64,000 bases of DNA, taken from IMG/VR virus record IMGVR_UViG_3300028888_000057; one strand, given 5' to 3'. The position numbers and the translations under genes were made by a program. A model generated the notes under the pieces. That model did no database searches and was not told the origin of the DNA. It saw nothing but the letters and a program-made list of their open reading frames with translations. This DNA comes from a virus (taxonomy: Duplodnaviria; Caudoviricetes). Positions 2,482 to 64,000 of the stretch are shown here, in pieces (positions within the stretch are counted from its first letter, which is position 1; every line of letters starts with the position of its first letter).

Positions 2482-2482
2482 A

Positions 2483-2704: not shown

Positions 2705-2775
2705 TTTACAGAAATAAGATAGTCGGCTGGGAACCATATTGTCCAACATAAGTATAACTTAAAGGCAGTGATTAA

Positions 2776-3000: not shown

Positions 3001-3045
3001 TTTAAAGGTGATAATGACGCTATAGTGAAGCAAAGGGTGTGTAAA

Positions 3046-3342: not shown

Positions 3343-3347
3343 GGTGA

Positions 3348-3506: not shown

Positions 3507-3817
3507 TTGATAAAAAGCAAGTCATGTTTGACATTGAACGTTGTATTTGCCATGTGCCGGATGCGTGTAAAGATTGCTCTAAATATAAAGGAATTGACGG
3601 ACTCCGATGCATGGAGGAACTAATGGTTGACGCTCATACTCTGCTGAAAGAGCAAGAAGCAGTTGAGCCAACATTTAAGCAAGATAACGATGGCATTTTT
3701 GTCTGGGCGTGTGGTTCATGCGGTGCGTACATGTATCACATCTACGATGGAATTGACAAGGCAAAGGAATACGCAAAATACTGTCGTCAATGCGGCAGAA
3801 AGGTGAAGTGGGAATGA
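3503..3817 (+). CDS. Modular Zn-ribbon protein
   Basis: CKDC module, [15 protein letters not shown]...[12 protein letters not shown]. Confidence 0.8.
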
Positions 3818-19461: not shown

Positions 19462-20577
19462 TTACATTTCAGAAACAGTTGCATCTTTGTACTTGCTTGC
19501 CAGACTCTTAGCATCAGACTCAGAAAGGTTAGAAATAACAACTTTATACTTCTTTTCAGTGATATCTCCGAACTGAAGGAACTCTGTCATCATATAGCCA
19601 CGCTGATCTAAGGCGTAGACATTGCACCAAGTGTCACCTTTTTCATATATGTCTACGATTGTTCCAATTTTTACGTAGCCTAATACATCTGCGCTAGTAG
19701 ACGGGCCTCTTCTTAGGCGAACAGAACTACCAGACTTTGCGATCACTTTTGCTTTTGTGGTAGGTTTAACAGGTGTAGACTTCTTAAGAGCTTCCCAAGT
19801 TGTTTTACCAACAATACCGTCAACAGTCAGACTGTTATCCTTCTGAAACTGTTTAACCGCTTCTTCGGTTGCGGAGCCGAACTTACCATCTGCCCCTTTG
19901 GAGCCTACATTATATCCGAGACGAATCAGTTCATTCTGAAGTTTTTTGACAGCTTCACCACTGTCTCCATTACGAAGTGTTGGTTTCTCAGGCACAGGGA
20001 TTTCACCTCCGACGCAGGCGGGGATTGCCCAATGCGTCCATTTTCGATTGTACTTATCAAAGTGTTGAACGTTCACGCTGGATTCAAGAGTCTGGCCTTT
20101 ATAACCCAGTCCTGTATGCTCCCAAGTCTTTTCTTTGTTGTCTTTAGAATAGAATAGACACACCAGAGTATTAGCAGGAACACCATCTGCAATACGACCT
20201 TTAGCTTTCCAGTTACTTTCTGTATTCCATTGAGATGTAGCTCCTGCTCCCTGAAGAGTCCAGCCATAAACCTGTTTTAATAGCCAATAAGTAAATCCAC
20301 GACAGTCAAAGCATCTGACTCTCACATTACCGGGATACCATTTACAGCCGCTGCAAGTTCCGTTACCATCGAAGTTTTTGCATGAAGTTTTGATCGTTGG
20401 ATGATCTTCACGATATCTGGCTCTTCGATTTGCAGGATCGCAAAAATCACCACGAGCACCGAATACATAGGGCCAGCCTACACAAGCTAACCCAGCATTC
20501 CAAACGATATCCTGAGGATCAATTCCTTGCAGCTTTTGTTCTGCAATTAGGTTATCTATGAACTTATAGTTATTCAT
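19462..20577 (-). CDS. Endolysin: NlpC/P60-like peptidase, PG-binding-1 and SH3b
   Basis: GWPYVFGA, FDCRGF, HTGL; LRNGDSGEAVKKLQ..DGIVGKTTW; VRLRRGPST..GYMMTEFL. Confidence 0.85.
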   Translation of the reverse strand: MNNYKFIDNLIAEQKLQGIDPQDIVWNAGLACVGWPYVFGARGDFCDPANRRARYREDHPTIKTSCKNFDGNGTCSGCKWYPGNVRVRCFDCRGFTYWLLKQVYGWTLQGAGATSQWNTESNWKAKGRIADGVPANTLVCLFYSKDNKEKTWEHTGLGYKGQTLESSVNVQHFDKYNRKWTHWAIPACVGGEIPVPEKPTLRNGDSGEAVKKLQNELIRLGYNVGSKGADGKFGSATEEAVKQFQKDNSLTVDGIVGKTTWEALKKSTPVKPTTKAKVIAKSGSSVRLRRGPSTSADVLGYVKIGTIVDIYEKGDTWCNVYALDQRGYMMTEFLQFGDITEKKYKVVISNLSESDAKSLASKYKDATVSEM

Positions 20578-48200: not shown

Positions 48201-48301
48201 GCCCGTCCGCTTGTATCGGAAAGATTATCGTATAAATTACAAACAATATTACCGCTGTAATCGCAGACATCCAGCCGTAGATTCCGTATGTTGGCGTTCA
48301 A
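42272..48301 (-). CDS. Tail-associated protein (Tal / tail spike, 2009 aa)
   Basis: N-terminal prophage-tail-type fold (ELSFTIP, ILEGTGW, TKLYAYG); beta-rich C-half; follows Dit. Confidence 0.85.
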   Translation of the reverse strand: MNANIRNLRLDVCDYSGNIVCNLYDNLSDTSGRATDVFVTSERNGWKELSFTIPSKVYTDERMEDNYRIKYLIADYRIRLMDDYETDWYLISEPKITHNKKSKNVSVVANHISMLLKQKKMDLEFSDEEGNNVGTARQLLETILEGTGWTCGNVAQFMERDQPNVEKVRSLVASAKTGAFKMIASMCELFDAKPIYHGNEMTVDVLPMNPFSEELNDDGTPTEVVNNNIPVLELHYDRNAHNIQRTLNTENICTKLYAYGSYGDREGLCSLQRCEHKEYTMIISGNGEYYFSDGTATYYFYATNARGGDTVVWSMLDATSMSYVWNNREEKAYHVYKKPKYENRTSLTPSVSNIRNYFSFITDFGYYNSVGLLSDDLLQKIAIYQRTAPALLASAEEIYEQVIETQNELSVIAEHNTGFLKLNVIRYEEDGNYLKLILDSSQPVLYRSDYDEPRRRLFTWYVAEELKENGDPVSGVGSVVYAINPSVTPARWRKGYVKKVNDNTEDYIYSAKENDDPNSLVVWLNTNEVNVSNFPIDRTHFYLYCTNSISGKLGVKESEAEALTRTLQQTTKQVTEIHPTYFGWDSDPLPDYRLVQNSYGWFYRSFRDETTLGNLYFCYGLAGDTIWRRVYVSETPPTVVAGEYYFNPRTKLLYHGETQNGILQWVEIGDSGIQIPSHNKYYAPDAEAQRLTNNFSKVVFYCLKRDMLYKGLYDRYEYTTYGDLIPGNYAFEDEYGFIWTFTTDQVVTTGKKIILDTASNNVFQGEINDNIVKAEIKTFDTIDYPLVNELSNVTFNQGAIDRTTHVEYNTEDYVRSNNITLNYSTRYDYHLPSGSYIIFYDSNRRYLDSFGLENTGYFTTSERVRYVRFVCPSIPMSDHYVRVHDYLNRLFISRKQYQILGKVKEETLSLKGNRIGINELIPNLVTLSDQLYLERLPAYNVVTQQITDQNNQLATDLGDLYREGWWQKDSYVEGDEDKLYADAKENLDIISRPEPNYTFTFLDLYGSEQGLTADDRSIADWPDINMSYAAHLIDPDINVDEWAFIDKIEKCYDKPWETKVSIDTNLSLLNQHSFTDVISHIADVAQQTKANQSVYKRACNISGSGKMATDKLEGAIKANVTLLQGGASNWYTDPKGNIVMESADGNSAMMLTGAGYMISNTKDKWGEWEWRSTMTGDGMTADAIYTGLLSGVLIEAGSITTDKINASVGQELEIGSNKALELYATIDGFRPSGSLHTTDALIDIRAGYMNKQGQTIPASISVLSGGEINLKAGSNDNPGGKMNIESNGELNVKGGTVNLESGGSMAIKSGSTLSIQANSEFLVDSPNFSITKDQQGNYAVSITGTVNADAGNIAGFTLGKATSEGVTRHYMHAGEDNSLDSTSNGVYIGTDGINIGGGAFKFSADGTKSHLTIAASDIVLGQGITLGSELTTAKSTISGAALTIDAITGTIGVLAANNITINSGSSVSVLTNGTVSIGSLASPFTIGSSGRKSFIYNNMPTLDSTNLNGIYLGTDGISLGGGNFIVTNGGVLTAQSGTIGGWEIEPAGIHKGDFWLNRIANNVVVDNTIVVQGGKYNPFSGEYPFQVTSGGAMIASNCKVAGDLVAKSLTLQNNAVDVNGTSQLFYFHADFNQFKLEYTTYTSEMRSKTQLLQDNGHLSLEAITEEKSGGKKTVAGIDVNTAGQVILSSTDFDSLGGSNSGITLTPNKITVSSGTLEINCENMTLNGVPFSGGTANLYGQLVEAKDKAVEESIKTVGDTLKGYSTIEQRDAAISAYVTDLQDTSGVYLTPTGIKISGGKTLTLESGGTINISSGNFKVDEAGNLWCKSLKVFNENGTESTIDLSSSTTQYPLWKLYYHTIKKVNGNVITLSNGTTINFKTAASFDLSGQWSNGEYIVDMIDRATSTTVKSNRSGKMTRDKTDADIKSDLEASSHKSYISILDSDGGTLIYILADASDACANSYLEGYYAGGGGSSSEYESAGLRYWGFQVNGEWHSYGSNAMELWKVVS

Positions 48302-48316: not shown

Positions 48317-49441
48317 TTACGCATATGTTGGTTTATAATTGAATGAAAGTGTATCTAAATATAATTCTGTAACAGGAGATATCGTAATCTCGTTCAAGTC
48401 ACAGATCATAGTGGATTCGTTTTGATCTCCGAGCGGTTCTTCTTCGCTGACGCGAAGTGTTAATATATTATCCTCAGTTTGATTCAATATTTTGTGCCAA
48501 TGAGAATTAATGAAAATATATCTGCCTACAACATCTTGTTCAAGATTGTTGAAAAGCGTTACTGTGTTGGTTCCTGAAACAGACACAAAAAGCCCTCTGA
48601 TTACGGGATTTGTCGGCTCAATTTCGATGAAACCTCCCGAATGATATAAAAAGCTTATCTCTGAACTGACGTTATTTCTGAGGACAGTTTTGCCGCTGAT
48701 TCCGTCGATATACAGTTCTTTGCTTCTGTCTGTCGTTGCTGATCTTGTCATACCAACAATACGGCATTCCTGTTTGGTTGTGTTGTTGGTGATGATAATT
48801 CCATCGCCAGCATTGCCAGCCAAAGTTAATCCAACAGCCGCACGTTCAGTTCCTGGATTAGCAAGATAGATTGTTTTTGTGTTCGGGGCTGTTAATTGAA
48901 TGTCACCGAAAGTCATCTGAGGAACCATTTCGCTTCGGATGAATAAACCTGTGTTTTGAATAACTTTGTCATGATATTTGTCGATTGGTAATGAGTAGAA
49001 TAAATGTTCGTTAGTAAAAGGTGCATTGACATTAATACCTCTCGCAAATGGATAGCCTGCCTTCATAGTGATTGTGATGAGCCCATTGCGATAATTCGTC
49101 ATGTCGCGATCATTCACTTCGGTAACTGTTACATAGTACGCATACCAAGGCATTCTTTTAAACACTAACTGACCTGACTTTCCAACCCTGAAAAGCTGAA
49201 ACACTTTACTCATCAATCCACGATCAATATCTTTTTCTTCGTAGAAGCATCTGAGTACAAATTCTTTGGGTTGTTTATAAGCGCCATAGTAATAACCACC
49301 ATTATGGCCATCCATTGTTTCTTCGTGAACAATTGTCTTAGCAGGACGATATACGTATGTGTTCTCTTTGTCTGGTGCGTATTCCAGATTGAAGTCCGCA
49401 ATATCGTATCCGCAAAAAGTAAAACCACCTCTCATGCACAT
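48317..49441 (-). CDS. Distal tail protein (Dit)
   Basis: GFTFCG..., GQLVF..PWYAY, YPFA; lies between tape measure and Tal. Confidence 0.8.
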   Translation of the reverse strand: MCMRGGFTFCGYDIADFNLEYAPDKENTYVYRPAKTIVHEETMDGHNGGYYYGAYKQPKEFVLRCFYEEKDIDRGLMSKVFQLFRVGKSGQLVFKRMPWYAYYVTVTEVNDRDMTNYRNGLITITMKAGYPFARGINVNAPFTNEHLFYSLPIDKYHDKVIQNTGLFIRSEMVPQMTFGDIQLTAPNTKTIYLANPGTERAAVGLTLAGNAGDGIIITNNTTKQECRIVGMTRSATTDRSKELYIDGISGKTVLRNNVSSEISFLYHSGGFIEIEPTNPVIRGLFVSVSGTNTVTLFNNLEQDVVGRYIFINSHWHKILNQTEDNILTLRVSEEEPLGDQNESTMICDLNEITISPVTELYLDTLSFNYKPTYA

Positions 49442-49587: not shown

Positions 49588-52500
49588 TTAAAATGTATAA
49601 CTCGCAAGATTTAATCCTTCTTTACGAAGCTGTTTCGTAAACTCTTGACCAACTCTTCTTGCGACATCTTCGAAATCAGCATCATCCTTCATCTCTGCTC
49701 CGTTAATCGTAATGTTGATATCTCCGATGGTTTGATTGCTTGTGTTTATCTTATCAAGATTTGGAACTCTAAACGGTTCGATATTGACGTAGTTTAAAGC
49801 ATCAGTAAGAGCTTTAATGTTGGCGGTGTCATAAGCACTAAGGAATGCTTCGGGTTTGGACATGGATCCATCAACCCATGCAAGTCCTGTATAATCAACT
49901 AAGCCACCTTCTGCATTTGGGCCTGTAATATGTTTATTTGTTAGAAGCTTTTCTTGATTTTGTTTATTGGCTTCAGCTGCTTTTGCGCCGAGATCTGATA
50001 TGCCCTCAAAGAAGCTACCTAAAACATTTCCAACAGCATTGCTTAAATCATTAAAAGGTTTAGAAATATCGATATTTAAAGGCGGTACTCCAGTTGCAAC
50101 ATTTGATCCACCGACACCCGCAGATGTAGAAGTATGAGTTGTTGCGCTATATGATGATCCATACTCTTTTTCAACAATCTTTTGTGCTTCCGTTTTTGAC
50201 GACGCTTGAACGGAATAACTTGTCTTAAACCCGTTTTTATCATAAACATCATATGTAGATTTGCTAGCTTGTTGTTTCTGTTGCGTTCCCGTATTGGCAG
50301 ATGGAGCAGGTTGTTCAGGCGCTACTGGTCCTTCGCTCTTCGGAACAACGTCTCCGGTTCCGGCGTAATCGCTTGGATTTGTAGGAGCAGGAGTTGGTTC
50401 AGTTGTAGGTTGATCAGGCTGAGTATCGTCAGGTTTGGTATCCTCTTCTTCACCTTTTTCTTTGCCATCGTTTTTATGATCATCGAATGAAGTGAAGCTT
50501 GGATTGTAGCCGCTGCCGTTGTTGTACCAAGAAAAATCAGGATCCCAACCTAAAGCTTCAAGAATTGCTTCTTCTGAATTTTGAGGAGTAAAGTCTTCGT
50601 GAATATCTGGTGTATAATTAATTGCCTGAAGCGCAACACTAACAGCGCTGGCAGCATTAGTCCAGCCATCTTGCCATTGACTTGCCAGCTGAAGTTGTCC
50701 AGTAACACTGGCATTCGCATAATCCAAACTATTCTCATACATGAATTTCATAAAGCTGTCTTGACTTGAAAGTATCTCATTAATCTCATCCCAATAAGTC
50801 TCGACAATACCCTTCATTGCCATCCATGTTTCTTTCCAGCCTTCTTCAAGCTGTTTCTTTCTTTCATCAAGGCTGTTCTGATAATCAATATCATTCTGCT
50901 GCAACCATAAAACGATATCGGAATAACTTCTGCTTAATACTTCTTTGACTTCGGCTGCAAAATTGTTAGCATCAAGAAGCATTTCCTGCAGATTCTCTCC
51001 GTGAATCTGGACGTATTCGTTGATGGCATTAATTTCATCTTCGATACGTTCAGTTGCAGCTTCTGCTTGCTGGCTTGCTTCGTCCCATCTGATATCCTGC
51101 CTCAGTTCATCGATCTTACGGGTAAGCTCTTTAGATTCCTTGCTTCTTGTTGGATCAGCAGAAATAAGAGCTAATTGCCGCTGATAATCATTAAGCTCGC
51201 TGTATTTATTTTCCGCATTCATCATCTGCCTGCGGTAATTCAGCCGCTCATTAATCAGTTGCTTTTCTTTTTCAAGAGCGTCTTTCTTTCGATCAAGCGT
51301 TTCTTTTTCCAGATCCCATTCGTCTTGATATCTGCGTTTGATAACATTGAGGATAATATTCTGCATTTCGACTGTGTTATTTAACATGTCTCTTTGCTTT
51401 TTCTTATTATCTTCAATGACCTTTAAAACCATCTGTTCAAGTTCAAGACGAGTTTTACGAATTGCTTGCTCGTTCTGTCGCAGAAGCTTGTTATTCTTTT
51501 CAATCGCATTATTGTTCTGTAAAAGAGCTTCTTCCTTCTTCTTGATTGCATCTGATAATCTATAGTAATCTTTTTCACTCAGGTTGATGTTTTCAAGCTC
51601 TTCTCTCAAGAGAGTAAGCTCTTCTTCCATAGCTGTAGTATTCTCTTTGCGATAATCAATCTCTTTCTGCAGCATGATGCCATAGTTGGTAAGCTCGCCG
51701 TTAGTTTGATACCTAGTCTGCTCATACTGCATAAGCGTAATGTTATGAGTACGATTACCTTCGTGACGATTAATTTCGTCAAGCAATCTGTCAACTTTAA
51801 TTCCTTCGAGTTCTCTGTCGAAGTTTTCAAGCTCGACTCTCGCAGAAGAAATAGACTCTTCAAGAGACAATACTTTCTGACGCAGATTATCCCATGCGCC
51901 AGAGCCATAAGGCACTGATCCCATTTCAGCTTTCAGTTGTGCTGCTTGTGCCGTCATATCTGCAACAGAAGAAGTTAACTCTTCACGACGCTTTTCGGCC
52001 ATGACAAAGTATGCATCCCAGTTGCCTTGATTCTGATAAATCTGTCCTTGATCTTTAATCAGCTTTTGAATATGACTGCTTAAATCGTTAATTCTATCAA
52101 TGCCTTCAAGGATTTCATCAACGCGATCTTCCATGATATCCATTTCAGCATTGGCGATATTAGCTTCAAGCTCAGTAATCTTGCCTTCAATTTCTTGAAC
52201 CAACTGAAGTTGTTTATAATACTCTTCAGTTTCTTTTACCATAGCTTTAAGCTTTTGAACTTCGATCGCTAACAGGCTTTTCTGAACGGTAATCATTTTA
52301 CGCCAATTTGCGATCTGTCTTTGCATCATATCCCGATACGCACCGTGATTACCAGCCCGCTTATACGCGTTGGCCATAAGCGCGTAACCGTTGTTCTGAT
52401 GCTCCTCGGTCATCGTCTGACGCTGTAAGCTCTCTCTTGTATCATTCTGTTCTTTCTCAAGCTTATCTTTTCTGGCCTTATCTCTTTGAGTGAGCATGTT

Positions 52501-55500
52501 ATCGTTCTGTTCAAGAAGTGAGTTAATCTCTTGAGTAGTATTTAAAGCATTCTGAGTTTGACCTTTGGAATTATAATAATCTCTCAAAGACTCCAACTGA
52601 GTAACATGTTTATTGTTACGTTCTTCAATCTCTTTATAAATATTTTCCTGTTCTTCGAAGAGCTTATTATACGATTCGGTATCTTCATTAAGATCGGCTC
52701 TCTCCATTTGAGAACTGATCATGTTTAATCTGTGAGTATACGGAATCGCTTCATTCTGCTGATACTGTCTTTGAACGTCTAATCTTGTAGCATCTAGCGT
52801 TATTCTATCGTTGACACTCTTGGCAATCTTTTCTGTTAAACTATCTCTTTCTCCAACAAGATCTCTATATCTGTCCGATTCTCCGTTACGCAGATATTCA
52901 TCTTCCATAGCAGAGACGATTTCAGCCCTCCGTCTCCTGTCTTCGGATTCAATATCGTTTATGCCAGTAAGCTGCTTATCAATCTCACCCAGCGCAGCTT
53001 CTGGATCGTTCACATTCATATAGAACGTATAATCGATCTCAGACATAGTTTGCTTATGTTGCAACAGCGTAGAGTTGTACTCATACAGTTGTTTCTGTTG
53101 AGCATCCATCTTGGCATAGAGAGCATCTACGGCTTCAGCTACTCCAGCAAAAGCTTCCTGCGCAGCCCAAAGTGATTCTGTCAATTTGTTCCAGTCATCA
53201 GATCCTTCTTTGGTACTTCTGCGCATGTTCTCAATCTCTTGGATATTCTTTTGATACTGATCTGCTAATCTTTGTTGGACTTGAATTTGCTGATTGACAT
53301 TATCACGATACGCCGCATCATCATTATAACGATCATAATTCTTTTCTTGAATCTCAAGCATCTTTTGATCGTGTTGGATAGCAGATACATCGAACTTTTG
53401 TTTTTCAAGGAGTTTGTCAGCTGCGGACTTGCCGCCGCCGCCTCCACCACCGCCACGACCATGATACTTTCCGTTTGCATTTTTAGAGATTAATGCCTTT
53501 AAGTTGATCTTTTCTTTTCCTTCTTCTTGTACGAAAGTTAAAGAAGCAAGATCTCCAGCATATGCTTCCAGGCGTGCAATTGCTTCTTCAACAGCTGCAC
53601 GAGCAGTATCATCAAGCGCATCTAGATTCAACGTTCCGTCTGGATTAACAGTGATGTTGCTTAAGTCATAATTTAAAGATAAGTCGTCGACCATGCTGTC
53701 CCAGATTGCTTGGAAGTCATCTGTAGCAGCTTCGTTAACAGCGTCTTCAGCGCCATCTAACAACTCAGCCAGTCGATCCTTAGAAAGCTGTTTAATCTCA
53801 TCGGAACTTATTTCCGGGAACAGGCTATCGATAAACCCAAGTGTTTTAGTATCTAATTGTTTACCTGATTTGCCTTGAGCTTTGGATATTGCAGTCATTT
53901 GATCTTGGAAACCTTCAATGTTCTTACGAATCATTTCGGTTCCTTCAGATGCATCTTTGCCGCCCTTCTTTATTTTAGAAAGAGCCGACGCAAGATTTGC
54001 AGAACCTTTACTGAACTGCGTAACATCTTTCAGTTTATCTTCGTTGACCTGCTCGTTGTATTTTCTTAAAGCTTTCTCAGCTGTATTGGCAGAAACACCC
54101 TCAGATTTAAGAATGTTTGCGAGCTCATCAGAATGATCAAGTGAATTAAAAGCATTTATTTCAGCCGCGTACTGCTCTTGATTCTGCATCCAGTCACGAT
54201 AAGTATCAATCATATTCTGACCGGACATGTTACCGCCGAACAGACTGTTCATCGTGGCCCGTTGAGTTTCAGGTGATGCTTTTCTTCCATACAGAGCGTT
54301 ATAATATGCATCATTAATCATATCTTCTGTAATGGCAGAACCTTCTTGTCCGAAGGAGTTTACCATATACAGAAGACCGTTATCTATCGAACCCCAGTCG
54401 ACATTCTTGTTTTGCTGAAGCGCAGAAACACGTTCACTAAAGGACGCTTCTCCACCTTCACCCCACAGCGTATTGTAAACTTCTGACATTGCAGCGCCGC
54501 GTTTACGTGTAGACTCAAGCGAAGAACTCGCAATATCCGATAATGATTTATACGTATTGTCGCTATGAACACCATTTTTTGCTTCGTTGATCGCATTAAG
54601 GAACGGTTCAATAAGCTCACGTAAATCTTCAGGCACTTGATCTAAAGACGAAATGATATCGTCTAAAGACATAGTATCAAAATCAAGAGAAGTTAATAAC
54701 TCTTCAGGAAGAAGTTCGGTTGCAAGTTTCTGATAGAACTCTTTGACTTTATCGTTAATGGCAGTTTGCAGTTCGCCTTCCTGACCGTTCTGAAGCATTT
54801 CATCTACTTGTTCATCAGACAGTCCGAGAAGAGAAGAGATGTATCCACGGTTCTCAGCCGTGTTTCCTCCTTCTAATCCGTATTGTGCTTGTTGCAAAGC
54901 ACGCATCGTATCACTATAACCGCTAATTAAACCTAACTGTTCCGCAAAGGAACCGTTAGTGAAGATATCCCGAGCCGAGACAATCTGCTGGGCGTTTTCG
55001 CGAACATAACGAGATGCGCTCATGTTGAGCTGTTCGGTTAACTGTTGACGGTCAGCTTCACGTTCATTTTGTGAAGCTTCGAGATCGGCAAGTTCTTTCG
55101 CTCTTCGCATTTCAGCAGAACCGTATACGGCAGTTCCACCAGCAGATACAGCTTCTCTGTTTCGTTCAACCATCCGTCTGAATTCAGTACCGTAAGTACT
55201 CATTGACTGAGCGGCCGTATCATACAGGTTCTTATCTTCAAACTGATCTCTGCTAAAACCATTCAAGATTCTGCGTTGAGCTTGTGCTATATCAGTCTGT
55301 GAATAATGCTGTTGAGCATTTAAGAACGGATTTACCTGATCGATATTTGCACCTTTTCCGGTATACGTATATTTTCCTTGCGTCATATCCCAGAAAAGCT
55401 GCGTCATCTTATCGTTAATCTTTCCGCTGCTTTGACCGACAACATCACCGTTTGAGAGAACATTGAATCCATATCGATCCATGAACTTAACGGCGTCTTC

Positions 55501-58500
55501 GTAAGAATAAAGCGCATCGGTTATTTCGTATCCATTTTGCTTAGCCCAATCAGCAGCCAGTTCAACTTGTCCTAATCTTGCAAGTTCGTTTAACGTCCCA
55601 GCAAAAGCTTCTCTATCATTCTCAGCCATTAATTCCGCACGTCGTAATGATCCAGCTCTATCTTTTTGAATTTCGATATCGCTAATACCATATGCACGCA
55701 TAGCAGCATTTTGCTCTTCGTACGTTCCGTTTTCAAGCATGAGAGCCCGTTGCTGATTTTCGTGCATCTCAGATCCGAACTGTAGCTGAGTCTTGATACT
55801 TACATTTCCGTTTTTCTGTAAATCTTCAAGAAGTTGAGTAGTGCCTTGAACAACTTTTCCGGCTTCTTCAAGCTCTGAAATACCAGAAATATTAAGCTTA
55901 ATCTGAATATTGCGATCAAGATTTATACCTTCTTGTTCTTCGGCCCGTTGTTCAGGTTTCATTTGCAGAAGACTAATAATTTCTGGATATTTACTTTGAA
56001 TAGCTGACCATTCGTCAGTAGTCCAGCCTTCTTCGGTCATTACTGTTTGTGCTTCGGCCAAAGATTGGAAGTTTCTACCATAAAGATTACGAGCTAGATC
56101 GGTAGCTTCTTTATTTGTTATTGTACGGCCAGTGCCGACTTTAATTCCTTTTTCGGCTAATGTTCGTGCAACATAATCTTGCAAATCGGCATCTGTTGAA
56201 AGCGTTCTATTTCGTGCAGCTTCAACAATTCTTTGTGTTTCCTGTTCTCCGAAGAAATTTTGAAACACTTTAAAAAGCTCGGAATAGTTGCCGTTTTCTT
56301 TAGTAAAATCTTCAACAAAATTTGGATTGCCTTGAAGAGCATTAAACATCAACGAAGAGATTGCCTTAGAAGTGTCTTCTCCGTTTAACATTGCAGCTGC
56401 AATACTTTGATAATCGCTCCACCTCACACCACTACGAATCTGACGATGCGAAGCTTGCTCCAACTCGTACAATAAAGGATTGTCTCTCTGAACGTTGCTT
56501 AGTTCCGCGCCTTCAGCAAGAAGATCGTAAATATCGAATAAAGATTGCTCGGTATTTGCTTCTAATACTCTATTTAAATATCTGTTTCTAGCTTCTGTTT
56601 TGGCTAATGCTGGCTGCCGTTCTTGTGTTACAGTTTGAGTTGATTTCTGTGCTGTTGAAGGATAAACAGGAGTTCCATTATTTTTTATTTTCGTTAATGC
56701 AATATTATTATCTCTCGCATATTTTTCTGCGTCTTCTTGATTCCAGAATGTTTGATTGACTCCTTGTATTGTATAAGGAGCATCTGTCTCAGAATAAGAT
56801 TTAATTTCATTTGCTGCATTAGATAAATTATCGTAATCGAATGTTTGAGCAAACCAATTTGAAAGAGCGTATTCGTTAAATTCTCCTTCGTCATTAAGCC
56901 AACTGTAACTTTGACCATTTCTTGTGTATTCGCGTTTAAAGTTTCCATTTTCATCATAAAGTTGACTCGTCAGCAAGGTTCGAAGACCAGACTCAATAAC
57001 TTCAACGGAAGTGTTACCTAAAGAAGCAACCTGTTCTAATGTGCCACTTGTTTTATAACTGTTAATCGCATCATCAATAACTTGTTGGATATTCTGCTTC
57101 CTTTGCTCTTGATTTCTTGCTTCCGTAAAATTACCAGAGAAAAATTGATCCAGAACGTATTCATAAGCGTTCGATATTCTATCAAGTACACCTTCGTTTT
57201 CTAAATCCAACGACTGCGTTCCGTCGAGCCACTGCAATATATCTTCATATCTAGAATCGCTTAAGAATGTTTTTAAACTGTTGCGATATTTTCCTTGGTC
57301 ACTTGACCACAATCGTTTGAAAACATTGGCGCGTCTTTTTCGAGCAAGATTTTCATCCTCACCCTCTACTAATCCTAACCAGCCACCATCTCTAAAGTTT
57401 ATAGACATGGCCTGTTCTTTTGTCAGGTCATCACTAAAATTAACACCTTGCCCACGAATAAATTGTTCATTACTTAACGCGCGCTTAAGGCCGATTTCAA
57501 ATTCACTTGCTCGGCTTTCTGTAATATTTTCACCTTCGAGAGTTCTGTAATTCTCAGGAAGATAATCTCTTACATATTGATTTGCATTATCAACATTTTC
57601 TTTATCTGCATCTTTTTTAAACTTTTGAGCAGTATCTTCTGCTGATTTAACGGCTTCTTCCCAACCAGAAAGTTTTTCAATAGCACTCTGCACTGAATCA
57701 GAAACATTAGGAAATACTTTTGCCAAATCTAATAAAGCAGCCCGGAGATTATTTCCCGCCGTAGCTTTCGCAGCTGCATCAGTTTTTTCATTAAGCGAAT
57801 CGTATACTTTTCCTAATTTCTTAACTTCATCAATTGCATCCTGCTGGGTTTTTACATCGTTATCATTATAAGACTTTGTTGTCCCTAATGTTTCAAGAGC
57901 TTTCGCGTTCTTCTTTTCAAATTTTTCGCGTTCTGTTTCTGTTGATCCGAGTCCGGCAAGTAAATTTGTTCCGTATGAAGCAACCGCAAATCCACCAAGT
58001 GCGGCTAATATCGTAGCTATTCCAGCCAATGGTCCAAGTTTAACAGAGTTCAACGCAACTGCAATCGCTGCAATACCAGCTGCAATACCACCTAAGATAG
58101 GAGCAGCATTTGATCCATTTGCTATATTTTGCAAGAACCCTGACAACAAATCGAGAACATTTGTAATGTCTCCTCCGTTAACAAAGCTCTCTACGACAGC
58201 GTCCCAAGAACTTCTAACGGTATCCATCGATGCCGCAAGGCTCTGCATGGCAATCTCATACTTACTTTGAGTTACGCCTTCAGATCCTTCTGCCAGCCCC
58301 AAGTACTTCTCCAATGTAGCACCGTTATCTTCAGACATACCTTCCATCAATGTAGAGAAGATGTTTGTCTGACGAGTACCAGCCATTGCGTTGGTAACAA
58401 TGGACTTCTGAGCGTCGCTTAAGTTCTTCCAGACTTTGGACAAGTCTAACATTACATCGTAAGCAGATCTCATCTGTCCGACTGTTTTGTTATCCCAGAG

Positions 58501-61500
58501 ATCAACACCTACAGCAGCAAGTGCAGCTTCAGCGTCGGAAGCAGTCGTCTTCTCACCGTTTTGATCGGCTGTGTAGCCTGTAAGGCTCAGCCTTCTCATG
58601 CGGGAGAACACTGTCTGTAAGGCTGTACCGACCTGGGTACCGCTTAACTGTGTATCGGAAGTACCGATAGTAAGTAAGGCTGTTAACTCTTCGTAGGATA
58701 CGCCTGCAACTTTGGCAGAAGCAGCAGCTTTCTGCATACCTTTACCAATCTCAGCCGCAGTTGTAGCAGCAGAGTCACCTAACGCTACCAGCGCGTCCAT
58801 CGCTGCTTCGGCAGAAGGAACTAAGTCATTCTGTAATGCAGTAGTGATAATCTTGGTAGCTTCAGCAACATTAAGCTTAGTGACGGTAGCAAACTTGATA
58901 ATAGATTCTGTACGGTCAGCTACTTCTGTGTCGGATAAGCCTTGACGATAAAGTGCAGCTTCGGTAGTAGCTACGTTAGAAACAGAGGTTCTGAGACCAA
59001 TAGCACGATTAATCGTTCCGGTACGCACGTCACGCATTTCGCCGTTGGACTTCATGGTGATGGCTTGGATCTCGTTCATGGAAGCGTCAAATTCTTTTAC
59101 AAAGCGCTTTGTTTCTTGAAGAGCTTTTTGGAAGAGTTGACGACCAAGACGTTGGGCAACCATACCGATTGCTTGACCTAATTCTCCGAACACAGCCTGA
59201 GCTGTTTGTCCGCCGCTGGTCAGTTGATCAAGTTGACTCTTTGCTTCTTGAGAAGCTTTATCTAAGTTCTTTAGCTGTTGAGTGGCTTGATCATATCCAA
59301 ACTGCGCAGCATTAATCTTTTCCTGATCTCCAGATTTTTTTGCAATCTCCAGTTGTTTAGTGTAGTAATCCTGATTACGCTGAGCATCTTCTTTTTGACG
59401 ATCGATAGAGTAGACTTGCTCTCTTGCATTCTCTCTGCGTTGTTCAACTCCGTAAAGAGCTTGAGCAATACGGGAGCGGCTGTAACGCATTTGTTGTTGC
59501 CGATTCGCTTGACTGAAAGCACGTTGCATATTATGAACGCGAATATCGCCTTGCATTGCAGAAGACGTCAAAGCATTATCTCTTTGTAGTTGACGTAAAA
59601 TTTGATTATTATCATATTGCTCTGTAATGCGCTGCTCTAAGATTGGATCAGTATTAGCAAGTAATAATGCTTCTTGTTCAGAATACCGTTTCGCTCTACG
59701 AAGCTTTTCTGCTCTAGCGTTTCTTGAAGCTTTAGCTTGAGCCAAACGATATTGTATTTCTTCGTCTCTCGTCATCGAGCGACCTTGCAATTGAGCATCA
59801 AGCTGATATCCTTCTGCGTCAAGTTGAAGATTCCGTTGCTCTCTATTAAAACTTACTTGTTCTCTTGCTCGAGCTTTTATTCGTCTATTGGAATATTCTT
59901 GTTCGAAAGCATTTCGATCAAAATCAGGGTCATTTATGTGTTCTGCTTTATAACGATCTCTCTGTAATTTCATTTGATCATACATTTGATCAAATTCTTC
60001 TTTTGCCGAAAAATCCTCACCACTAAATAATGTATCTAGATTGCGCTTAGAAACACGTGTTTGAGCATTTTTCATCACTTCTCTGAAATATTCATCTTCT
60101 CTATTTCGCTTTGAATATTGATCCCATAAATCCTTATTATCAAGTATTTTATCATATTCGTTCCGAAGAGGATCGTCCAGTCCCAAAACGTCTCTTTGAG
60201 CAGTAATCTGATCTTTTAATTGTTGGACTTTTATATCAGCTCTATCAGTCGAAGATAAGTTGCCGTTTGTTAGTTCCCGTTGATATTTGGCTAACTGATC
60301 AAAACGTTGACGGTTCAATCTTGCTAGCATATCATCAGCTTGAGAATTAATTTTATCAACTTTAGTTTCTTCTTCTTTTGACATAATCGAAGAAGCGTCT
60401 CTTGTATAATCAGGCATTAATCCAGTACGCTGAAATTCTTCATATAAAATCGCGTCTGATTCTTCTTGTGTTAACTTATTTCCAGCTACAGCAACTCTTC
60501 TTTGTTTTCTCCAATTTTCTACAATCTCTTCTGGCGTTTGAGTTATTAATCCTAAGCGTTGTTGAAGATCGCGCTGAACAATTGCTTCTGGCTTATCACT
60601 TTCGAGGAATGAATCAGCTTGCTGTATTCTGTCTTGTCTATCTTTGATTATTTTTGCATAAGCTTCAGCTTCATCTTCTGTAATGTCCGGATTTACTATT
60701 TTTTCACTTGCTTCCTTAATTTCATTTGACCAGTTATCTATCTTTTGCTGAATTTGCTTTCTTTTATCGGCAAATGCCGCTTCAATCATTTCCGCCGGAT
60801 CTTGTATTTCACCGATGAGACTTGACCAGTCTGCATCTTGAGCTTCTTTGTCAGATTTTAAATAACGGTCAAGTGCCGGTTTTATCTCTTCCATTGCCAC
60901 TTCTTCAGCGTCAATCGAATCTAAAAATCTCTTTTTTTGTTCTCTTGCGACTTCAGCAAGTTTAGTATTATCTGAATCAACATTGAATAACTCAGCTTGT
61001 TCTTCAGGCGATAAATATGCATCTGCAAGTTCTTTGTATTCACCAGTTGGACCCATTTTTGTAATATAGCCACGGTAAATACTTTCTCCGCCAACTTCCA
61101 TCTTTTTAATGAAGTCTCGACTGCTTTTAGCAGCCAACAATCTACTAGTAACACCAGACAGTGTTTTCATAGTGTTCGATCTTTGGACTCCATTTAGACT
61201 ATTTGTGATATCTTCTCCCGCTTTATCCCAGTCTGTCACAGCGGCTTCAGAACCCAATTTATCAATTTGAGAAAGCAATCTTAACTTTTGTCTTATATCG
61301 TCTGTTAATTTTTCTCTTACTGGAGAATCAGAATCGTATCCATAAGCAACAGCATTGACTACTTCTTCTGGAAGAACTTCCATAAGTTTATTTCGGTAAT
61401 TTTCGAATCGATTAAACTTTCTTTCCGGTAGATCCATTTCACGGAAAATGCTGCTTCGAATCTGATTCATAGTTTCAAGATCGCTTGGATATCTAGACAA

Positions 61501-63999
61501 GAAAAACTCTCTGTCTTTTTGAGACATATCTCTATGATTTTCCTGAGCTCTAGACGTATATTCTTCGGCTTGACGCTTTTCTCTAGACTCTCTAGCTATC
61601 GCAGCTGCATAAGCGCGGCCTTCGTCATCTAATGTTTTTGCGTCAATCATTTTATGCTCCATTGCATATTGAACATCTTTTTCGACTTCTGCAAAAACGG
61701 ACTCATTATCCGCTCTTCTAGCTAAGATATGCGCGTCTTCTCGAGGATTATATCCAATTACACCACCAAGATCAGATACATATTTTTTAGCTACATCGTC
61801 CCAGTGCCCAACTCCAGCAAATGCCTTATATGAAGTTGCATTTGTTTCAGGATTCGGAGAATGCAAATTTTCATAATATTCCTGAGCATATTTGTCCATG
61901 ATGGAATTGTAGAAAATAGACTGAATAAGAGATTCAGCTGCTCCTTCTGCGCTAGACTTATAGTCTATTGTATATAGCAATCCATCATTTTTATTTCGAA
62001 GCATTAAGTCCGGTTTCGCGTGTGTCCGTTTTGAAGTGTCATATCCGACAATCTGGCCGTCTTTATCTCTTATTGGTATTTGAATGTTGAAATCTTTTTG
62101 CATCGGGATTGCGCCGAGGCTTTCTCCGTTTGGTCCATAACTATAAAAATCTCCTTCAACATTCACAGGACGTTCAGTGTCGAAGCCAAGATTATTTAAA
62201 GACTTAATAAACTTAGCTGATGATGAAACTGGATTATTTTTAGTCGGAAGTATTTTATTTAATTTTTGAACAGCTGTGTTACTTCTATCGCCTTTTACTT
62301 CAAATAAAGGCTTTTCACCGTCTTTGCTGATTCTCGATATGTTTATCCCGTATTGGTTTAATTTATCATTATATCCGCCAATATAAGCATCAGTATAAAA
62401 ATCATCTATAGATCTTCCATTTAAAGTTCCATCGGCCGCTGCTTTAAAATATTGCTCGAACGCCCCATGCATCAATAAACCTTGAAGGGTATGCTCGTTT
62501 TCAAACGGTTGATTTCGTAGTTCTGCTTGAGCCTGTAAGATTTGATCAGCAAGATTATTAAAGCTTTTTATTGTCGTTTCGGTGTTTCTTGCACCAGATG
62601 GAGTAAACTCAGTTGTATTTAGTCTATATTCTTTATCTGGCATCCAGTGCTTAAATGATGTCCAATTCATTTGAATATGATCATCATCCCAAACGCCGTT
62701 TTTTAATCTCTCTTCCTCTGCTGCTTTCTGAGCTTCTTCTTCTGCTTTCGCGTCATATGAAGTAATCTTCGCTTGTTCTTTTATTGCATCTCGGACCGCT
62801 GAATCAACAGCTTTGTCACTCTGCCTTTTGCTTTGATGCTTCACAAGACGATCAATTAAACCAAACCTGTCTCTATTTTCTTCAACGTTGTTTCCATTCG
62901 CTATTTCTGTTAAAATACGATCTCTTTCAGTTTGAAGGTTTTTAACAGTAAATCCTTCTCCGCTTTCAAGTTCGTGAATGCGACGAACAAATCTATTGTA
63001 TTTTTTATACTCTTCTTCGTCTGTTGAAACATTTCGACCGCTTAAACTGGCCTCCCAACGTTGTGCAATATCGTAACCATTTACGATATCTTCATCTGTC
63101 ATAGCTCGACCAGTCATCATTTCAGAGAACTTTTTAGCGTACCATCTTGTGGCTTGAGCTTCAGATGACGCGGATTTTCCGTATTTGCGTTCAATTAAAC
63201 GGTTTACATTATTGTTAAAATCGGAGAAATCTGTTGAACCGTTTTCATAATCTATTGCTCGCAAAGCAACAGCAAGTGCTCCTTGAGGGCCTGAAATAGT
63301 CGCGAACTTAACTTTAAAAAGTTGATCAAGAGCTTCTTCTTCTTTTTCGAGATATGGATCTCGACCATCTTCTTCTGCTAACTCATTAAGTTTTGTCACA
63401 AAACGAAGATAGCTTCCGCCATTACTAAGAAAAGATTCAGTATCTTTATCGAGTTTGAGTTCTTGACCTTTCGTTCTCATATCGGAAGAAGCAAAATCAT
63501 AAGCTTTCATTCCTTTATAAGCAAGCTTCCACTTTTGAGGATCTGAGTCGGGAAGATCCATGGCGTCTCGAATTATTTTCGAAGCAGCGCCCATTGCTCT
63601 CGTTGATTTCTGATAATTCTCAAGAGCTTTAATCCTACTTTCAAGCACATCTCCAGTTTTTGCTTTTGGTTCTTCTATATTACCTTTATAGCTTTCTTCT
63701 TTTTCTATTTCTGCTTGAGCTTCTTGTATTTTTTTGCTTATATAATCCATATGTGCATACGAGGCATCTTCAAGTCCGGCATACATACGGATTGTATCTC
63801 CATCGAAGTCTCCAGTGTTCATTTGATATGCTTGTTGAGTAGTTAAATATATTGCATTATCAAGCTGCTCTTGTGTAATCCCGAATTTTCCTAAAGCTTT
63901 AGAAGCCATGTTGTAAGCAACAATGCGCTGATCTGGCGCATCCGGATTTCTATTAAAAGCAGCACGTTTATTAAATGAAAGATTTTTGCCGCCTGTAGC
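49588..63999 (-). CDS. Giant tape-measure protein with N-terminal RNA polymerase-like and PD-(D/E)XK nuclease-like domains (5'-partial, at least 4803 aa)
   Basis: Frame open past ATG 63909 to the window edge; TP901-type domain about 59100-58200; TM region about 58100-57950; long coiled coils; GGLVDYTGLAWVDG..PEAFL C-domain; NRNP and GDFDGD motifs; upstream of Dit and Tal. Confidence 0.9.
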   Translation of the reverse strand, partial: ATGGKNLSFNKRAAFNRNPDAPDQRIVAYNMASKALGKFGITQEQLDNAIYLTTQQAYQMNTGDFDGDTIRMYAGLEDASYAHMDYISKKIQEAQAEIEKEESYKGNIEEPKAKTGDVLESRIKALENYQKSTRAMGAASKIIRDAMDLPDSDPQKWKLAYKGMKAYDFASSDMRTKGQELKLDKDTESFLSNGGSYLRFVTKLNELAEEDGRDPYLEKEEEALDQLFKVKFATISGPQGALAVALRAIDYENGSTDFSDFNNNVNRLIERKYGKSASSEAQATRWYAKKFSEMMTGRAMTDEDIVNGYDIAQRWEASLSGRNVSTDEEEYKKYNRFVRRIHELESGEGFTVKNLQTERDRILTEIANGNNVEENRDRFGLIDRLVKHQSKRQSDKAVDSAVRDAIKEQAKITSYDAKAEEEAQKAAEEERLKNGVWDDDHIQMNWTSFKHWMPDKEYRLNTTEFTPSGARNTETTIKSFNNLADQILQAQAELRNQPFENEHTLQGLLMHGAFEQYFKAAADGTLNGRSIDDFYTDAYIGGYNDKLNQYGINISRISKDGEKPLFEVKGDRSNTAVQKLNKILPTKNNPVSSSAKFIKSLNNLGFDTERPVNVEGDFYSYGPNGESLGAIPMQKDFNIQIPIRDKDGQIVGYDTSKRTHAKPDLMLRNKNDGLLYTIDYKSSAEGAAESLIQSIFYNSIMDKYAQEYYENLHSPNPETNATSYKAFAGVGHWDDVAKKYVSDLGGVIGYNPREDAHILARRADNESVFAEVEKDVQYAMEHKMIDAKTLDDEGRAYAAAIARESREKRQAEEYTSRAQENHRDMSQKDREFFLSRYPSDLETMNQIRSSIFREMDLPERKFNRFENYRNKLMEVLPEEVVNAVAYGYDSDSPVREKLTDDIRQKLRLLSQIDKLGSEAAVTDWDKAGEDITNSLNGVQRSNTMKTLSGVTSRLLAAKSSRDFIKKMEVGGESIYRGYITKMGPTGEYKELADAYLSPEEQAELFNVDSDNTKLAEVAREQKKRFLDSIDAEEVAMEEIKPALDRYLKSDKEAQDADWSSLIGEIQDPAEMIEAAFADKRKQIQQKIDNWSNEIKEASEKIVNPDITEDEAEAYAKIIKDRQDRIQQADSFLESDKPEAIVQRDLQQRLGLITQTPEEIVENWRKQRRVAVAGNKLTQEESDAILYEEFQRTGLMPDYTRDASSIMSKEEETKVDKINSQADDMLARLNRQRFDQLAKYQRELTNGNLSSTDRADIKVQQLKDQITAQRDVLGLDDPLRNEYDKILDNKDLWDQYSKRNREDEYFREVMKNAQTRVSKRNLDTLFSGEDFSAKEEFDQMYDQMKLQRDRYKAEHINDPDFDRNAFEQEYSNRRIKARAREQVSFNREQRNLQLDAEGYQLDAQLQGRSMTRDEEIQYRLAQAKASRNARAEKLRRAKRYSEQEALLLANTDPILEQRITEQYDNNQILRQLQRDNALTSSAMQGDIRVHNMQRAFSQANRQQQMRYSRSRIAQALYGVEQRRENAREQVYSIDRQKEDAQRNQDYYTKQLEIAKKSGDQEKINAAQFGYDQATQQLKNLDKASQEAKSQLDQLTSGGQTAQAVFGELGQAIGMVAQRLGRQLFQKALQETKRFVKEFDASMNEIQAITMKSNGEMRDVRTGTINRAIGLRTSVSNVATTEAALYRQGLSDTEVADRTESIIKFATVTKLNVAEATKIITTALQNDLVPSAEAAMDALVALGDSAATTAAEIGKGMQKAAASAKVAGVSYEELTALLTIGTSDTQLSGTQVGTALQTVFSRMRRLSLTGYTADQNGEKTTASDAEAALAAVGVDLWDNKTVGQMRSAYDVMLDLSKVWKNLSDAQKSIVTNAMAGTRQTNIFSTLMEGMSEDNGATLEKYLGLAEGSEGVTQSKYEIAMQSLAASMDTVRSSWDAVVESFVNGGDITNVLDLLSGFLQNIANGSNAAPILGGIAAGIAAIAVALNSVKLGPLAGIATILAALGGFAVASYGTNLLAGLGSTETEREKFEKKNAKALETLGTTKSYNDNDVKTQQDAIDEVKKLGKVYDSLNEKTDAAAKATAGNNLRAALLDLAKVFPNVSDSVQSAIEKLSGWEEAVKSAEDTAQKFKKDADKENVDNANQYVRDYLPENYRTLEGENITESRASEFEIGLKRALSNEQFIRGQGVNFSDDLTKEQAMSINFRDGGWLGLVEGEDENLARKRRANVFKRLWSSDQGKYRNSLKTFLSDSRYEDILQWLDGTQSLDLENEGVLDRISNAYEYVLDQFFSGNFTEARNQEQRKQNIQQVIDDAINSYKTSGTLEQVASLGNTSVEVIESGLRTLLTSQLYDENGNFKREYTRNGQSYSWLNDEGEFNEYALSNWFAQTFDYDNLSNAANEIKSYSETDAPYTIQGVNQTFWNQEDAEKYARDNNIALTKIKNNGTPVYPSTAQKSTQTVTQERQPALAKTEARNRYLNRVLEANTEQSLFDIYDLLAEGAELSNVQRDNPLLYELEQASHRQIRSGVRWSDYQSIAAAMLNGEDTSKAISSLMFNALQGNPNFVEDFTKENGNYSELFKVFQNFFGEQETQRIVEAARNRTLSTDADLQDYVARTLAEKGIKVGTGRTITNKEATDLARNLYGRNFQSLAEAQTVMTEEGWTTDEWSAIQSKYPEIISLLQMKPEQRAEEQEGINLDRNIQIKLNISGISELEEAGKVVQGTTQLLEDLQKNGNVSIKTQLQFGSEMHENQQRALMLENGTYEEQNAAMRAYGISDIEIQKDRAGSLRRAELMAENDREAFAGTLNELARLGQVELAADWAKQNGYEITDALYSYEDAVKFMDRYGFNVLSNGDVVGQSSGKINDKMTQLFWDMTQGKYTYTGKGANIDQVNPFLNAQQHYSQTDIAQAQRRILNGFSRDQFEDKNLYDTAAQSMSTYGTEFRRMVERNREAVSAGGTAVYGSAEMRRAKELADLEASQNEREADRQQLTEQLNMSASRYVRENAQQIVSARDIFTNGSFAEQLGLISGYSDTMRALQQAQYGLEGGNTAENRGYISSLLGLSDEQVDEMLQNGQEGELQTAINDKVKEFYQKLATELLPEELLTSLDFDTMSLDDIISSLDQVPEDLRELIEPFLNAINEAKNGVHSDNTYKSLSDIASSSLESTRKRGAAMSEVYNTLWGEGGEASFSERVSALQQNKNVDWGSIDNGLLYMVNSFGQEGSAITEDMINDAYYNALYGRKASPETQRATMNSLFGGNMSGQNMIDTYRDWMQNQEQYAAEINAFNSLDHSDELANILKSEGVSANTAEKALRKYNEQVNEDKLKDVTQFSKGSANLASALSKIKKGGKDASEGTEMIRKNIEGFQDQMTAISKAQGKSGKQLDTKTLGFIDSLFPEISSDEIKQLSKDRLAELLDGAEDAVNEAATDDFQAIWDSMVDDLSLNYDLSNITVNPDGTLNLDALDDTARAAVEEAIARLEAYAGDLASLTFVQEEGKEKINLKALISKNANGKYHGRGGGGGGGGKSAADKLLEKQKFDVSAIQHDQKMLEIQEKNYDRYNDDAAYRDNVNQQIQVQQRLADQYQKNIQEIENMRRSTKEGSDDWNKLTESLWAAQEAFAGVAEAVDALYAKMDAQQKQLYEYNSTLLQHKQTMSEIDYTFYMNVNDPEAALGEIDKQLTGINDIESEDRRRRAEIVSAMEDEYLRNGESDRYRDLVGERDSLTEKIAKSVNDRITLDATRLDVQRQYQQNEAIPYTHRLNMISSQMERADLNEDTESYNKLFEEQENIYKEIEERNNKHVTQLESLRDYYNSKGQTQNALNTTQEINSLLEQNDNMLTQRDKARKDKLEKEQNDTRESLQRQTMTEEHQNNGYALMANAYKRAGNHGAYRDMMQRQIANWRKMITVQKSLLAIEVQKLKAMVKETEEYYKQLQLVQEIEGKITELEANIANAEMDIMEDRVDEILEGIDRINDLSSHIQKLIKDQGQIYQNQGNWDAYFVMAEKRREELTSSVADMTAQAAQLKAEMGSVPYGSGAWDNLRQKVLSLEESISSARVELENFDRELEGIKVDRLLDEINRHEGNRTHNITLMQYEQTRYQTNGELTNYGIMLQKEIDYRKENTTAMEEELTLLREELENINLSEKDYYRLSDAIKKKEEALLQNNNAIEKNNKLLRQNEQAIRKTRLELEQMVLKVIEDNKKKQRDMLNNTVEMQNIILNVIKRRYQDEWDLEKETLDRKKDALEKEKQLINERLNYRRQMMNAENKYSELNDYQRQLALISADPTRSKESKELTRKIDELRQDIRWDEASQQAEAATERIEDEINAINEYVQIHGENLQEMLLDANNFAAEVKEVLSRSYSDIVLWLQQNDIDYQNSLDERKKQLEEGWKETWMAMKGIVETYWDEINEILSSQDSFMKFMYENSLDYANASVTGQLQLASQWQDGWTNAASAVSVALQAINYTPDIHEDFTPQNSEEAILEALGWDPDFSWYNNGSGYNPSFTSFDDHKNDGKEKGEEEDTKPDDTQPDQPTTEPTPAPTNPSDYAGTGDVVPKSEGPVAPEQPAPSANTGTQQKQQASKSTYDVYDKNGFKTSYSVQASSKTEAQKIVEKEYGSSYSATTHTSTSAGVGGSNVATGVPPLNIDISKPFNDLSNAVGNVLGSFFEGISDLGAKAAEANKQNQEKLLTNKHITGPNAEGGLVDYTGLAWVDGSMSKPEAFLSAYDTANIKALTDALNYVNIEPFRVPNLDKINTSNQTIGDINITINGAEMKDDADFEDVARRVGQEFTKQLRKEGLNLASYTF

Positions 64000-64000
64000 A

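Follow-up and report, generated by a model that had tools for sequence, protein, structure and literature searches.

A predicted two-barrel RNA polymerase of the QDE-1/YonO kind at the N-terminus of a giant phage tape measure protein

Can a phage tail ruler also carry an RNA polymerase? This question is raised by a 64,000-nucleotide stretch of DNA (hereafter the window) from the IMG/VR virus record IMGVR_UViG_3300028888_000057 (Caudoviricetes), in which an earlier note, made from the sequence alone, had recognized an RNA polymerase active-site domain joined in frame to a tape measure protein near the right-hand end. As claimed there, the open reading frame (ORF) continues upstream of the annotated ATG, and in fact the minus-strand frame 49588-63999 runs without a stop for 4803 amino acids until it reaches the window edge. 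In a word-indexed search, its translation proved to be the exact C-terminal suffix, offset by 979 residues, of a 5782-residue protein (P0002), whose first 979 residues lie past the window end. The ATG at 63909 was rejected as the start, being internal to the frame, and all homologues are conserved upstream of it. Residue numbers below refer to the full protein. We put at roughly three in four the probability that this is a tape measure protein with an N-terminal polymerase of the QDE-1/RDR/YonO kind, which would be injected and, independently of the host polymerase, transcribe the first genes of the phage.

That the ORF encodes a tape measure protein follows from its match to the Pfam family PhageMin_Tail (PF10145), together with the genes for a distal tail protein (Dit) and a tail-associated lysin (Tal) directly downstream. 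The PF10145 match (100.6 bits, with the cut-off at 33.2) covers residues 2649-2853 and places the tape-measure core at 58378-58992 on the minus strand, while PHROG tape-measure families match this same region and also the last few hundred residues before the core. Moreover, Gly/Ala-rich hydrophobic segments found by a Kyte-Doolittle scan at residues 2942-2989 (57970-58113, minus strand) are candidates for the membrane-spanning segments that are typical of tape measure proteins. Dit (48317-49441, minus strand; phrog_33, E 1e-16; Sipho_tail) is encoded immediately downstream, and next to it is a YomG/Tal-like protein of 2009 amino acids (42272-48301, minus strand) with YOMG_N and Prophage_tail domains, beyond which stand the genes for giant fibre-like proteins and two lysins. 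In two relatives (L001 and L002), virion structural genes are found upstream of the fusion gene. The window has a G+C content of 40% and a tail gene order typical of siphophages of Gram-positive bacteria, and we read the gene as coding for the tape measure protein in the tail of a siphophage of about 149 kb and of Gram-positive type.

To view the N-terminal part as a fold, we used an AlphaFold model of residues 400-1400 made from 29 sequences (predicted local distance difference test score, pLDDT, 82; predicted template modelling score, pTM, 0.77). Another model, from five sequences, was unusable (pLDDT 47.9) and was not taken into the searches. With Foldseek against the PDB, the significant matches, at ranks 1-20, were all QDE-1 or RDR2 (E 2e-7 to 2e-4), after which came P74-26 gp62, P23-45 gp64, crAss phi14:2 gp66, P23-45 gp96, and bacterial β′ chains. 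Structural alignment by VIA-align placed the QDE-1 and RDR2 rows far above unrelated ones, with Z-scores of 14-17 over about 500-520 residues, including RDR2 (Z 16.8 for 507 residues, 4.5 Å) and QDE-1 (Z 15.3 for ~510 residues). Lower values were obtained for gp62/gp64 of the P23-45 gp64 family (Z 10.9), gp96 (Z 8.1-8.6 over 316-370 residues), the p97/NSF N-domain double-psi barrels (Z ~7, model residues 533-658), and the bacterial β′ catalytic barrel (Z 6.5, 15-18% identity). Moreover, the top two matches in BFVD are phage proteins named RNA-dependent RNA polymerase, and a fold search of the ESM Atlas gave template modelling (TM) scores of 0.53-0.54 over 615-648 residues to clusters of RNA-dependent RNA polymerase (RdRP) type from phages and Bacillota, a type to which the language-model feature search of the same atlas also points, with low recognition. 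Despite low TM-scores, the family ranking of these matches to the predicted model is unambiguous, and with QDE-1/RDR2 first and β′ lower it agrees with the earlier guess of a YonO/RNAi type rather than a cellular one. The core that aligns with RDR2 and QDE-1 extends over residues ~419-1239 (model range 20-840), the in-window part being residues 980-1239 (63220-63999, minus strand), and by Foldseek, VIA-align, and the ESM Atlas the predicted model has the overall catalytic-core fold of PF05183 type. Modelling thus supports, for residues ~400-1400, an RNA polymerase with two barrels in one chain, of the QDE-1/RDR/YonO kind.

The catalytic double-psi β-barrel (DPBB-A) is predicted at residues 932-1057, from alignment of model residues 533-658 with the p97/NSF and β′ barrels, and its C-terminal two thirds fall within the window at 63766-63999 (minus strand). 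Four sequence blocks that had been matched in order to Escherichia coli RpoC (AFNR, RIVAY, AIYL, and DFDGD, this last followed by TIRMY) do fall on four successive predicted β-strands (AFNR, RIVAYN, AIYL, and TIRMYA; model residues 592-597, 605-610, 629-632, and 649-654) and on the loop ahead of the fourth strand, inside the barrel, where DFDGD sits. Here, the R-x-P motif of a β′-type barrel is R996-N-P998 (63943-63951, minus strand), its arginine and proline invariant in the 29 sequences, and the presumed Mg-binding catalytic loop is N1040-T-G-D-F-D-G-D1047 (63796-63819, minus strand). The positions originally reported for NRNP (63954-63943) and DFDGD (63810-63796; D1043-D1047) are correct on the minus strand, and the latter is the sole match to D[FYWLIVM]DxD among the window ORFs of at least 150 amino acids. 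The arginine stands 47 residues ahead of the first catalytic aspartate, as had been counted, rather than the 35 quoted for RpoC, because two short helices are inserted between strands 2 and 3. R996-N-P998 and D1043 also fit the [RK]xPx{20,100}DxDxD filter of PMC10770324 (Supplementary Data 4). A β′-type barrel with a DxDGD loop, the mark of the superfamily, is accordingly seen both in the predicted model and in the conservation of D[FY]DGD, which is present in all 24 full-length relatives.

Two segments after the motif, MGAAS and AYDF..TKG, had been loosely compared with the helices that follow it in single-chain two-barrel enzymes. Both are conserved and both sit in long predicted helices after the barrel, though a correspondence to the bridge helix and trigger loop goes by position only. 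The first helix, a bridge-helix candidate, spans residues 1097-1126 (model 698-727; 63559-63648, minus strand) and includes M1115-G-A-A-S, with MGAA invariant in the five closest homologues and the methionine nearly so across the 29 sequences. The second, a candidate for the trigger-loop region, spans residues 1135-1156 (model 736-757; 63469-63534, minus strand) and carries the pattern K-W..Y..K.Y-D, in which Y1146 is invariant and D1147 nearly invariant.

A candidate for the β-like first barrel is the strand-rich region of model residues 213-325, which holds the invariant D652, Q668, R670, and K677, with K773 further on, and which is covered by the whole-core alignment of the predicted model to QDE-1 and RDR2. 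The model suggests a barrel order in which a β-like unit (D652-G, Q668-x-R670, K677) precedes a β′-like one (R996-x-P998, D1043-F-D-G-D1047). This order would be shared with QDE-1, RDR2, and YonO, the kind to which the best structural matches belong, and QDE-1/YonO-type enzymes also have in common with the fusion protein the motif series DG..., x-R, K, R-x-P, and DxDGD at similar spacing. In the phage polymerase family that is positive for Pfam RdRP (PF05183), referred to here as YonO-like, the invariant residues are D274-G..G277, R291, K296, R517-S-P519, and D560-V-D-G, with D564 in at least 90% of members; the spacings are 17 residues from DG to R, 5 from R to K, and 43 from R-x-P to D, against 18, 7, and 47 in the fusion family. 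When the two families were aligned by hhalign, DG...QMR...K was paired with DG...FMVR...K of the YonO-like family, at a probability of 1-4% that involves motif columns only and is not proof of homology. The fusion family differs from the YonO-like one in having no PF05183 match even at E ≤ 1, in a connector between the barrels that is longer by ~100 residues (K677-R996 versus K296-R517), and in being joined to a tape measure, whereas YonO-like enzymes are free-standing.

A close search brought up four more giants of 5130-6308 amino acids (96-24% identity), all with PF10145, and a family profile built on residues 230-1330 and run against 1.84 billion cluster representatives returned 44 proteins and no other matches. 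We defined as the full-length set those 24 proteins of at least 4000 amino acids that were either profile matches or came from the close search (P0003, P0005, and P0006). These span 4352-6710 amino acids, are often ~20% identical, and stem from separate assemblies, and each has its polymerase part at the N-terminus, where D[FY]DGD lies at residues 1043-1293, and then the tape-measure core, at 2293-3962 (24 of 24). The form NTGD[FY]DGD is kept throughout the full-length relatives, with R-x-P 47-67 residues ahead of DxDGD in most of them, and D[FY]DGD was also found in seven shorter fragments or truncated forms; the remaining members are either short fragments or proteins of 1.6-1.9 kb in which the tape-measure core is missing. 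Within IMG/VR, relatives of the fusion protein are only 23-34% identical, and one is on a genome that carries direct terminal repeats and has a rating of complete. The same architecture in 24 divergent proteins from separate assemblies, including this terminal-repeat genome, excludes an assembly or gene-calling artefact, a possibility that had been left standing when the fusion was first proposed. At present, proteins of this family are labelled as minor tail or tape measure proteins only.

An alignment of residues 400-1400 from the 29 sequences has a mean column identity of 23% and just 16 invariant columns, namely D652, Q668, R670, K677, P723, K773, S863, R996, P998, T1041, D1043, D1045, G1046, D1047, Y1146, and F1207. 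With so few, conservation is concentrated in the motifs that are expected of a two-barrel polymerase. A subclade of the full-length set (P0009, P0011, P0013, P0014, and P0016-P0018) has MTGDYDGDTAW in place of NTGDFDGDT, and it includes the longest members (up to 6710 amino acids). Among the BFVD matches is also a weak one (E 0.02) to A0A8S5SD80_1, which covers the first piece of a protein named 'Minor tail protein' in the gut metagenome phage Siphoviridae sp. ctnpt50; this phage also encodes the 'RNA-dependent RNA polymerase' that is the second BFVD hit, and its tail protein may be another tail-fused polymerase, public and unannotated.

One relative with a homologous fusion (34% identity) is a complete genome of 107.9 kb (G001; IMG/VR UViG 3300031867_000020), which also encodes a stand-alone YonO-like polymerase of 931 amino acids. 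Located at the extreme left genome end (L010:79-2874, minus strand), this second polymerase passes the PF05183 threshold (39.2 bits against 23.8), carries DVDGD, and shows a cluster of invariant, zinc-ribbon-like cysteines at its C-terminus. It has more than 500 homologues, many of them on contigs of 100-180 kb.

Directly after the polymerase, residues 1424-1708 (61813-62667, minus strand) form a putative RecB/Cas4-like PD-(D/E)XK nuclease domain. Here, the motifs of RecB/Cas4 nucleases, H/E, D, (D/E)-x-K, and Q-x3-Y, follow in order as G..MH...E (62446-62481), PD (61999-62019), D-Y-K-S (61951-61971), and Q...Y (61909-61929), all on the minus strand, and in 11 relatives G..M-H...E and P-D are invariant, while D-[YW]-K-S and Q-x3-Y are each kept in at least 90%. 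Pfam PDDEXK_1 matches the same site in five of five homologues, at best with 20.2 bits (E 6e-4), which is below the gathering score of 22 bits, and a PDB profile search with the domain gave matches at chance level only. The domain is found in about half of the full-length family and is absent from the MTGDYDGDTAW clade, which retains the polymerase.

To our knowledge, no link between a tail ruler and transcription was known until 2024, and the only studied case is from a phage of a thermophile. In the Thermus phage P23-45, the first ~1100 of the 5002 residues of the tape measure protein gp96 are a two-barrel polymerase, with DFDGD at residues 779-783 (PMC10770324). The statement in the earlier note that known virion polymerases are not tape-measure fusions is refuted by this protein, which shows activity in vitro, occurs in virions, and transcribes the pre-early genes, including that for the non-virion polymerase gp64 (PMC10770324). 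Its crystal structures are 8H2M and 8H2N (Chaban et al., bioRxiv 2022, Nat Commun 2024; PMC10770324), and relatives are known from P74-26, G20c, and TSP4 (PMC10770324). The principle of a polymerase on a tape measure is therefore already published, and what is new here is a different polymerase subtype, a different tape-measure family, and the frequent nuclease.

Likenesses between the two proteins are several. Each is one giant ORF in the tape-measure slot (5002 amino acids in gp96 and 5782 in P0002) that combines an N-terminal single-chain two-barrel polymerase with the tape measure, and each has R-N-P followed by DFDGD-T (R741-N-P743 and D779 in gp96, R996-N-P998 and D1043 in P0002), with local agreement between Y..STGVDFDGDT and Y..NTG-DFDGDT. 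A second, stand-alone polymerase is also encoded by P23-45 and by the relative G001. On the other hand, whole-protein BLASTP gave a best E of 0.68, that is, no similarity, and hhalign gave 12-16%, restricted to Y..[NS]TG.DFDGDT. Moreover, the P0002 polymerase model resembles QDE-1/RDR2 (Z 15-17) and also gp62/gp64 (Z 10.9) more closely than it does gp96, which has an M23 peptidase and no PF10145, whereas P0002 has PF10145 and no M23 peptidase, and carries the PD-(D/E)XK nuclease after its polymerase. The P0002 phage is also of Gram-positive type, with 40% G+C, ~149 kb, and an integrase. When the first 1200 residues of gp96 were searched by tblastn against the cultured-phage collection, relatives were met in Thermus phages only. 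These differences are consistent with an independent fusion, and a very old common origin with the gp96 fusion is conceivable as well. Tentatively, and at odds a little short of even, we see here a second fusion between a virion polymerase and a tape measure, one that evolved on its own and in which mesophilic phages of Gram-positive type would have combined a QDE-1/YonO-type polymerase with a PF10145 ruler and a RecB-like nuclease.

In crAss phi14:2, gp66 (PDB 6VR4) likewise holds a two-barrel polymerase within a very large virion protein that is delivered at infection, though it is a podovirus cargo protein and not a tape measure. Its match to the P0002 model is weak (Foldseek E 0.07; VIA-align Z 6.4 for 526 residues with a root-mean-square deviation of 6.0) and far below those of QDE-1 and RDR2. 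Its motif is DFDID. Gut 'Siphoviridae sp.' genomes with two polymerases are listed in Supplementary Data 4 of PMC10770324, and in the part of that listing covered here they are not tape-measure fusions. In our literature search, no paper describing the present fusion family was found.

How, then, might such a protein work? The domain order would be the polymerase (~400-1400), the nuclease (1424-1708), ~800 further residues, the PF10145 core, the hydrophobic segments, and ~2800 residues of ruler. By analogy with gp96 and from what is generally known of tape measure proteins, the chain would be built into the tail tube and fill it with its C-terminus at the tip, and at infection it would be expelled into the cell envelope to form or line the DNA conduit. 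The N-terminal polymerase, beside the leading DNA end, could then transcribe the first-entering genes, for which the host polymerase would not be needed, and a stand-alone YonO-like polymerase (as in G001) made from the first transcripts would take over. Ejection at infection and early-gene transcription are presumed here on the analogy with gp96, and we likewise infer that the polymerase would be active, DNA-dependent, and present in the virion, as well as its timing and the role of the nuclease. Guesses at the latter are the processing or holding of the leading DNA end, or an attack on host DNA.

Several observations weigh against this reading. The fold evidence is one predicted model from 29 sequences, and its global TM-scores to solved structures are only ~0.33. 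With Pfam at E ≤ 1, nothing was matched by the domain, and PF05183 (gathering score 23.8 bits) had no hit in residues 1-1400 or in four homologues. PDB sequence and profile searches likewise gave nothing for the N-terminal region, as also did PHROGs and a search of 50,697 phage records by tblastn and by megablast. By hhalign, the probability is 16% against the gp96 family and 3.6% against the YonO-like family, in both cases confined to motifs. Moreover, a folded polymerase of ~110 kDa (a region of 1001 residues) cannot fit the lumen of the tail tube unless unfolded or head-proximal, and the phage carries an integrase. That sequence methods name no polymerase family agrees with the statement that many polymerase families have no significant similarity outside the DxDxD region (PMC10770324). 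The fold, the motifs, which are intact, and the architecture together support the proposed fusion of an RNA polymerase domain to the tape measure.

The best surviving alternative, though an unlikely one, is that the two-barrel domain is active and yet is not a DNA-dependent early transcriptase, serving instead to make replication primers, to copy RNA in the manner of QDE-1 and plant RDR enzymes, or to work with the nuclease on the incoming end. The closest solved structures are indeed RNA-dependent enzymes, and about half of the family has, immediately after the polymerase, the RecB-like nuclease, something that a plain transcriptase does not need. YonO, however, is reportedly a DNA-dependent transcriptase as well, and the DYDGD subclade keeps the polymerase without the nuclease. 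The characterized phage members of the clade, crAss gp66, gp64, and gp96, are all DNA-dependent transcriptases (PMC10770324), and in a passage of PMC9508822 QDE-1 is described as accepting DNA templates too.

Whether the polymerase stays on the ruler is a separate matter. Proteolytic processing is established for the tape measure proteins of several phages, and a folded, globular domain of ~110 kDa is a poor fit for the tail tube, so one may picture a polyprotein from which the polymerase is cleaved before or during tail assembly, to act as a late, non-virion enzyme that is not injected. We consider this improbable, as the N-terminal fusion is kept in 24 divergent proteins, which would be difficult to account for if the two parts did not need to be physically linked, and the separate stand-alone polymerase in G001 would make a second free enzyme redundant. 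In the case of gp96, moreover, antibodies to the polymerase part revealed the protein in virions (PMC10770324).

Still less credible is that the domain is no longer catalytic and acts as a plug, structural or DNA-binding, at the head-proximal end of the tape measure. In favour of this, no similarity to active enzymes can be detected beyond the motifs, but dead domains normally lose such catalytic residues, and here the three aspartates, the intervening glycine, the R-x-P motif, and the first barrel's basic residues are all invariant at ~20% identity. Finally, a chance motif, a calcium-binding loop of DxDxDG type, or an artefact of assembly or gene calling can practically be dismissed, since for all that the pentapeptide is short and the window shows just 64 residues upstream of it, every fold match is to two-barrel polymerases, the architecture repeats in 24 proteins, and FG-GAP/VCBS or other calcium-repeat families, an alternative raised at the outset and now rejected, had no match in the Pfam scans.

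Returning to the injected polymerase, at least 24 giant proteins of uncultured phages with the same logic suggest that the injection of a polymerase with the tape measure recurs among phages as a solution, one that would start transcription independently of the host. If the fusion did arise independently of gp96, delivery of a host-takeover module of polymerase and nuclease would be a general function of the tape measure, and not a peculiarity of one Thermus phage lineage, and the nuclease would take on a new role as the DNA enters, such as to trim or hold the leading genome end or to attack the DNA of the host. The family would also offer a mesophilic system of Gram-positive type in which to study the passage of a ~110 kDa polymerase through the tail tube, and a nuclease at the DNA entry point.

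Elsewhere in the window, which is 64 kb of the ~149-kb phage, ARAGORN found no tRNA genes. At its start (3-932, plus strand, open at the 5′ end) is the integrase gene (phrog_1, E 8e-57), an unexpected one in a phage that apparently brings its own polymerase, and by this gene the phage may be temperate. Downstream of the tail genes are two giant tail proteins, which are probably receptor-binding or fibre proteins. The one at 21345-26666 (minus strand; 1773 amino acids) has the same PHROG modules in triplicate (phrog_38707 and phrog_15439, 'peptidase'), and the other at 28148-34903 (minus strand; 2251 amino acids) contains DUF6273. Two lysis-type enzymes are encoded at 17978-18703 and 19462-20577 (both minus strand), one with Phage_lysozyme2 and the other with PG_binding_1 and SH3 domains, the latter combination fitting a Gram-positive host.

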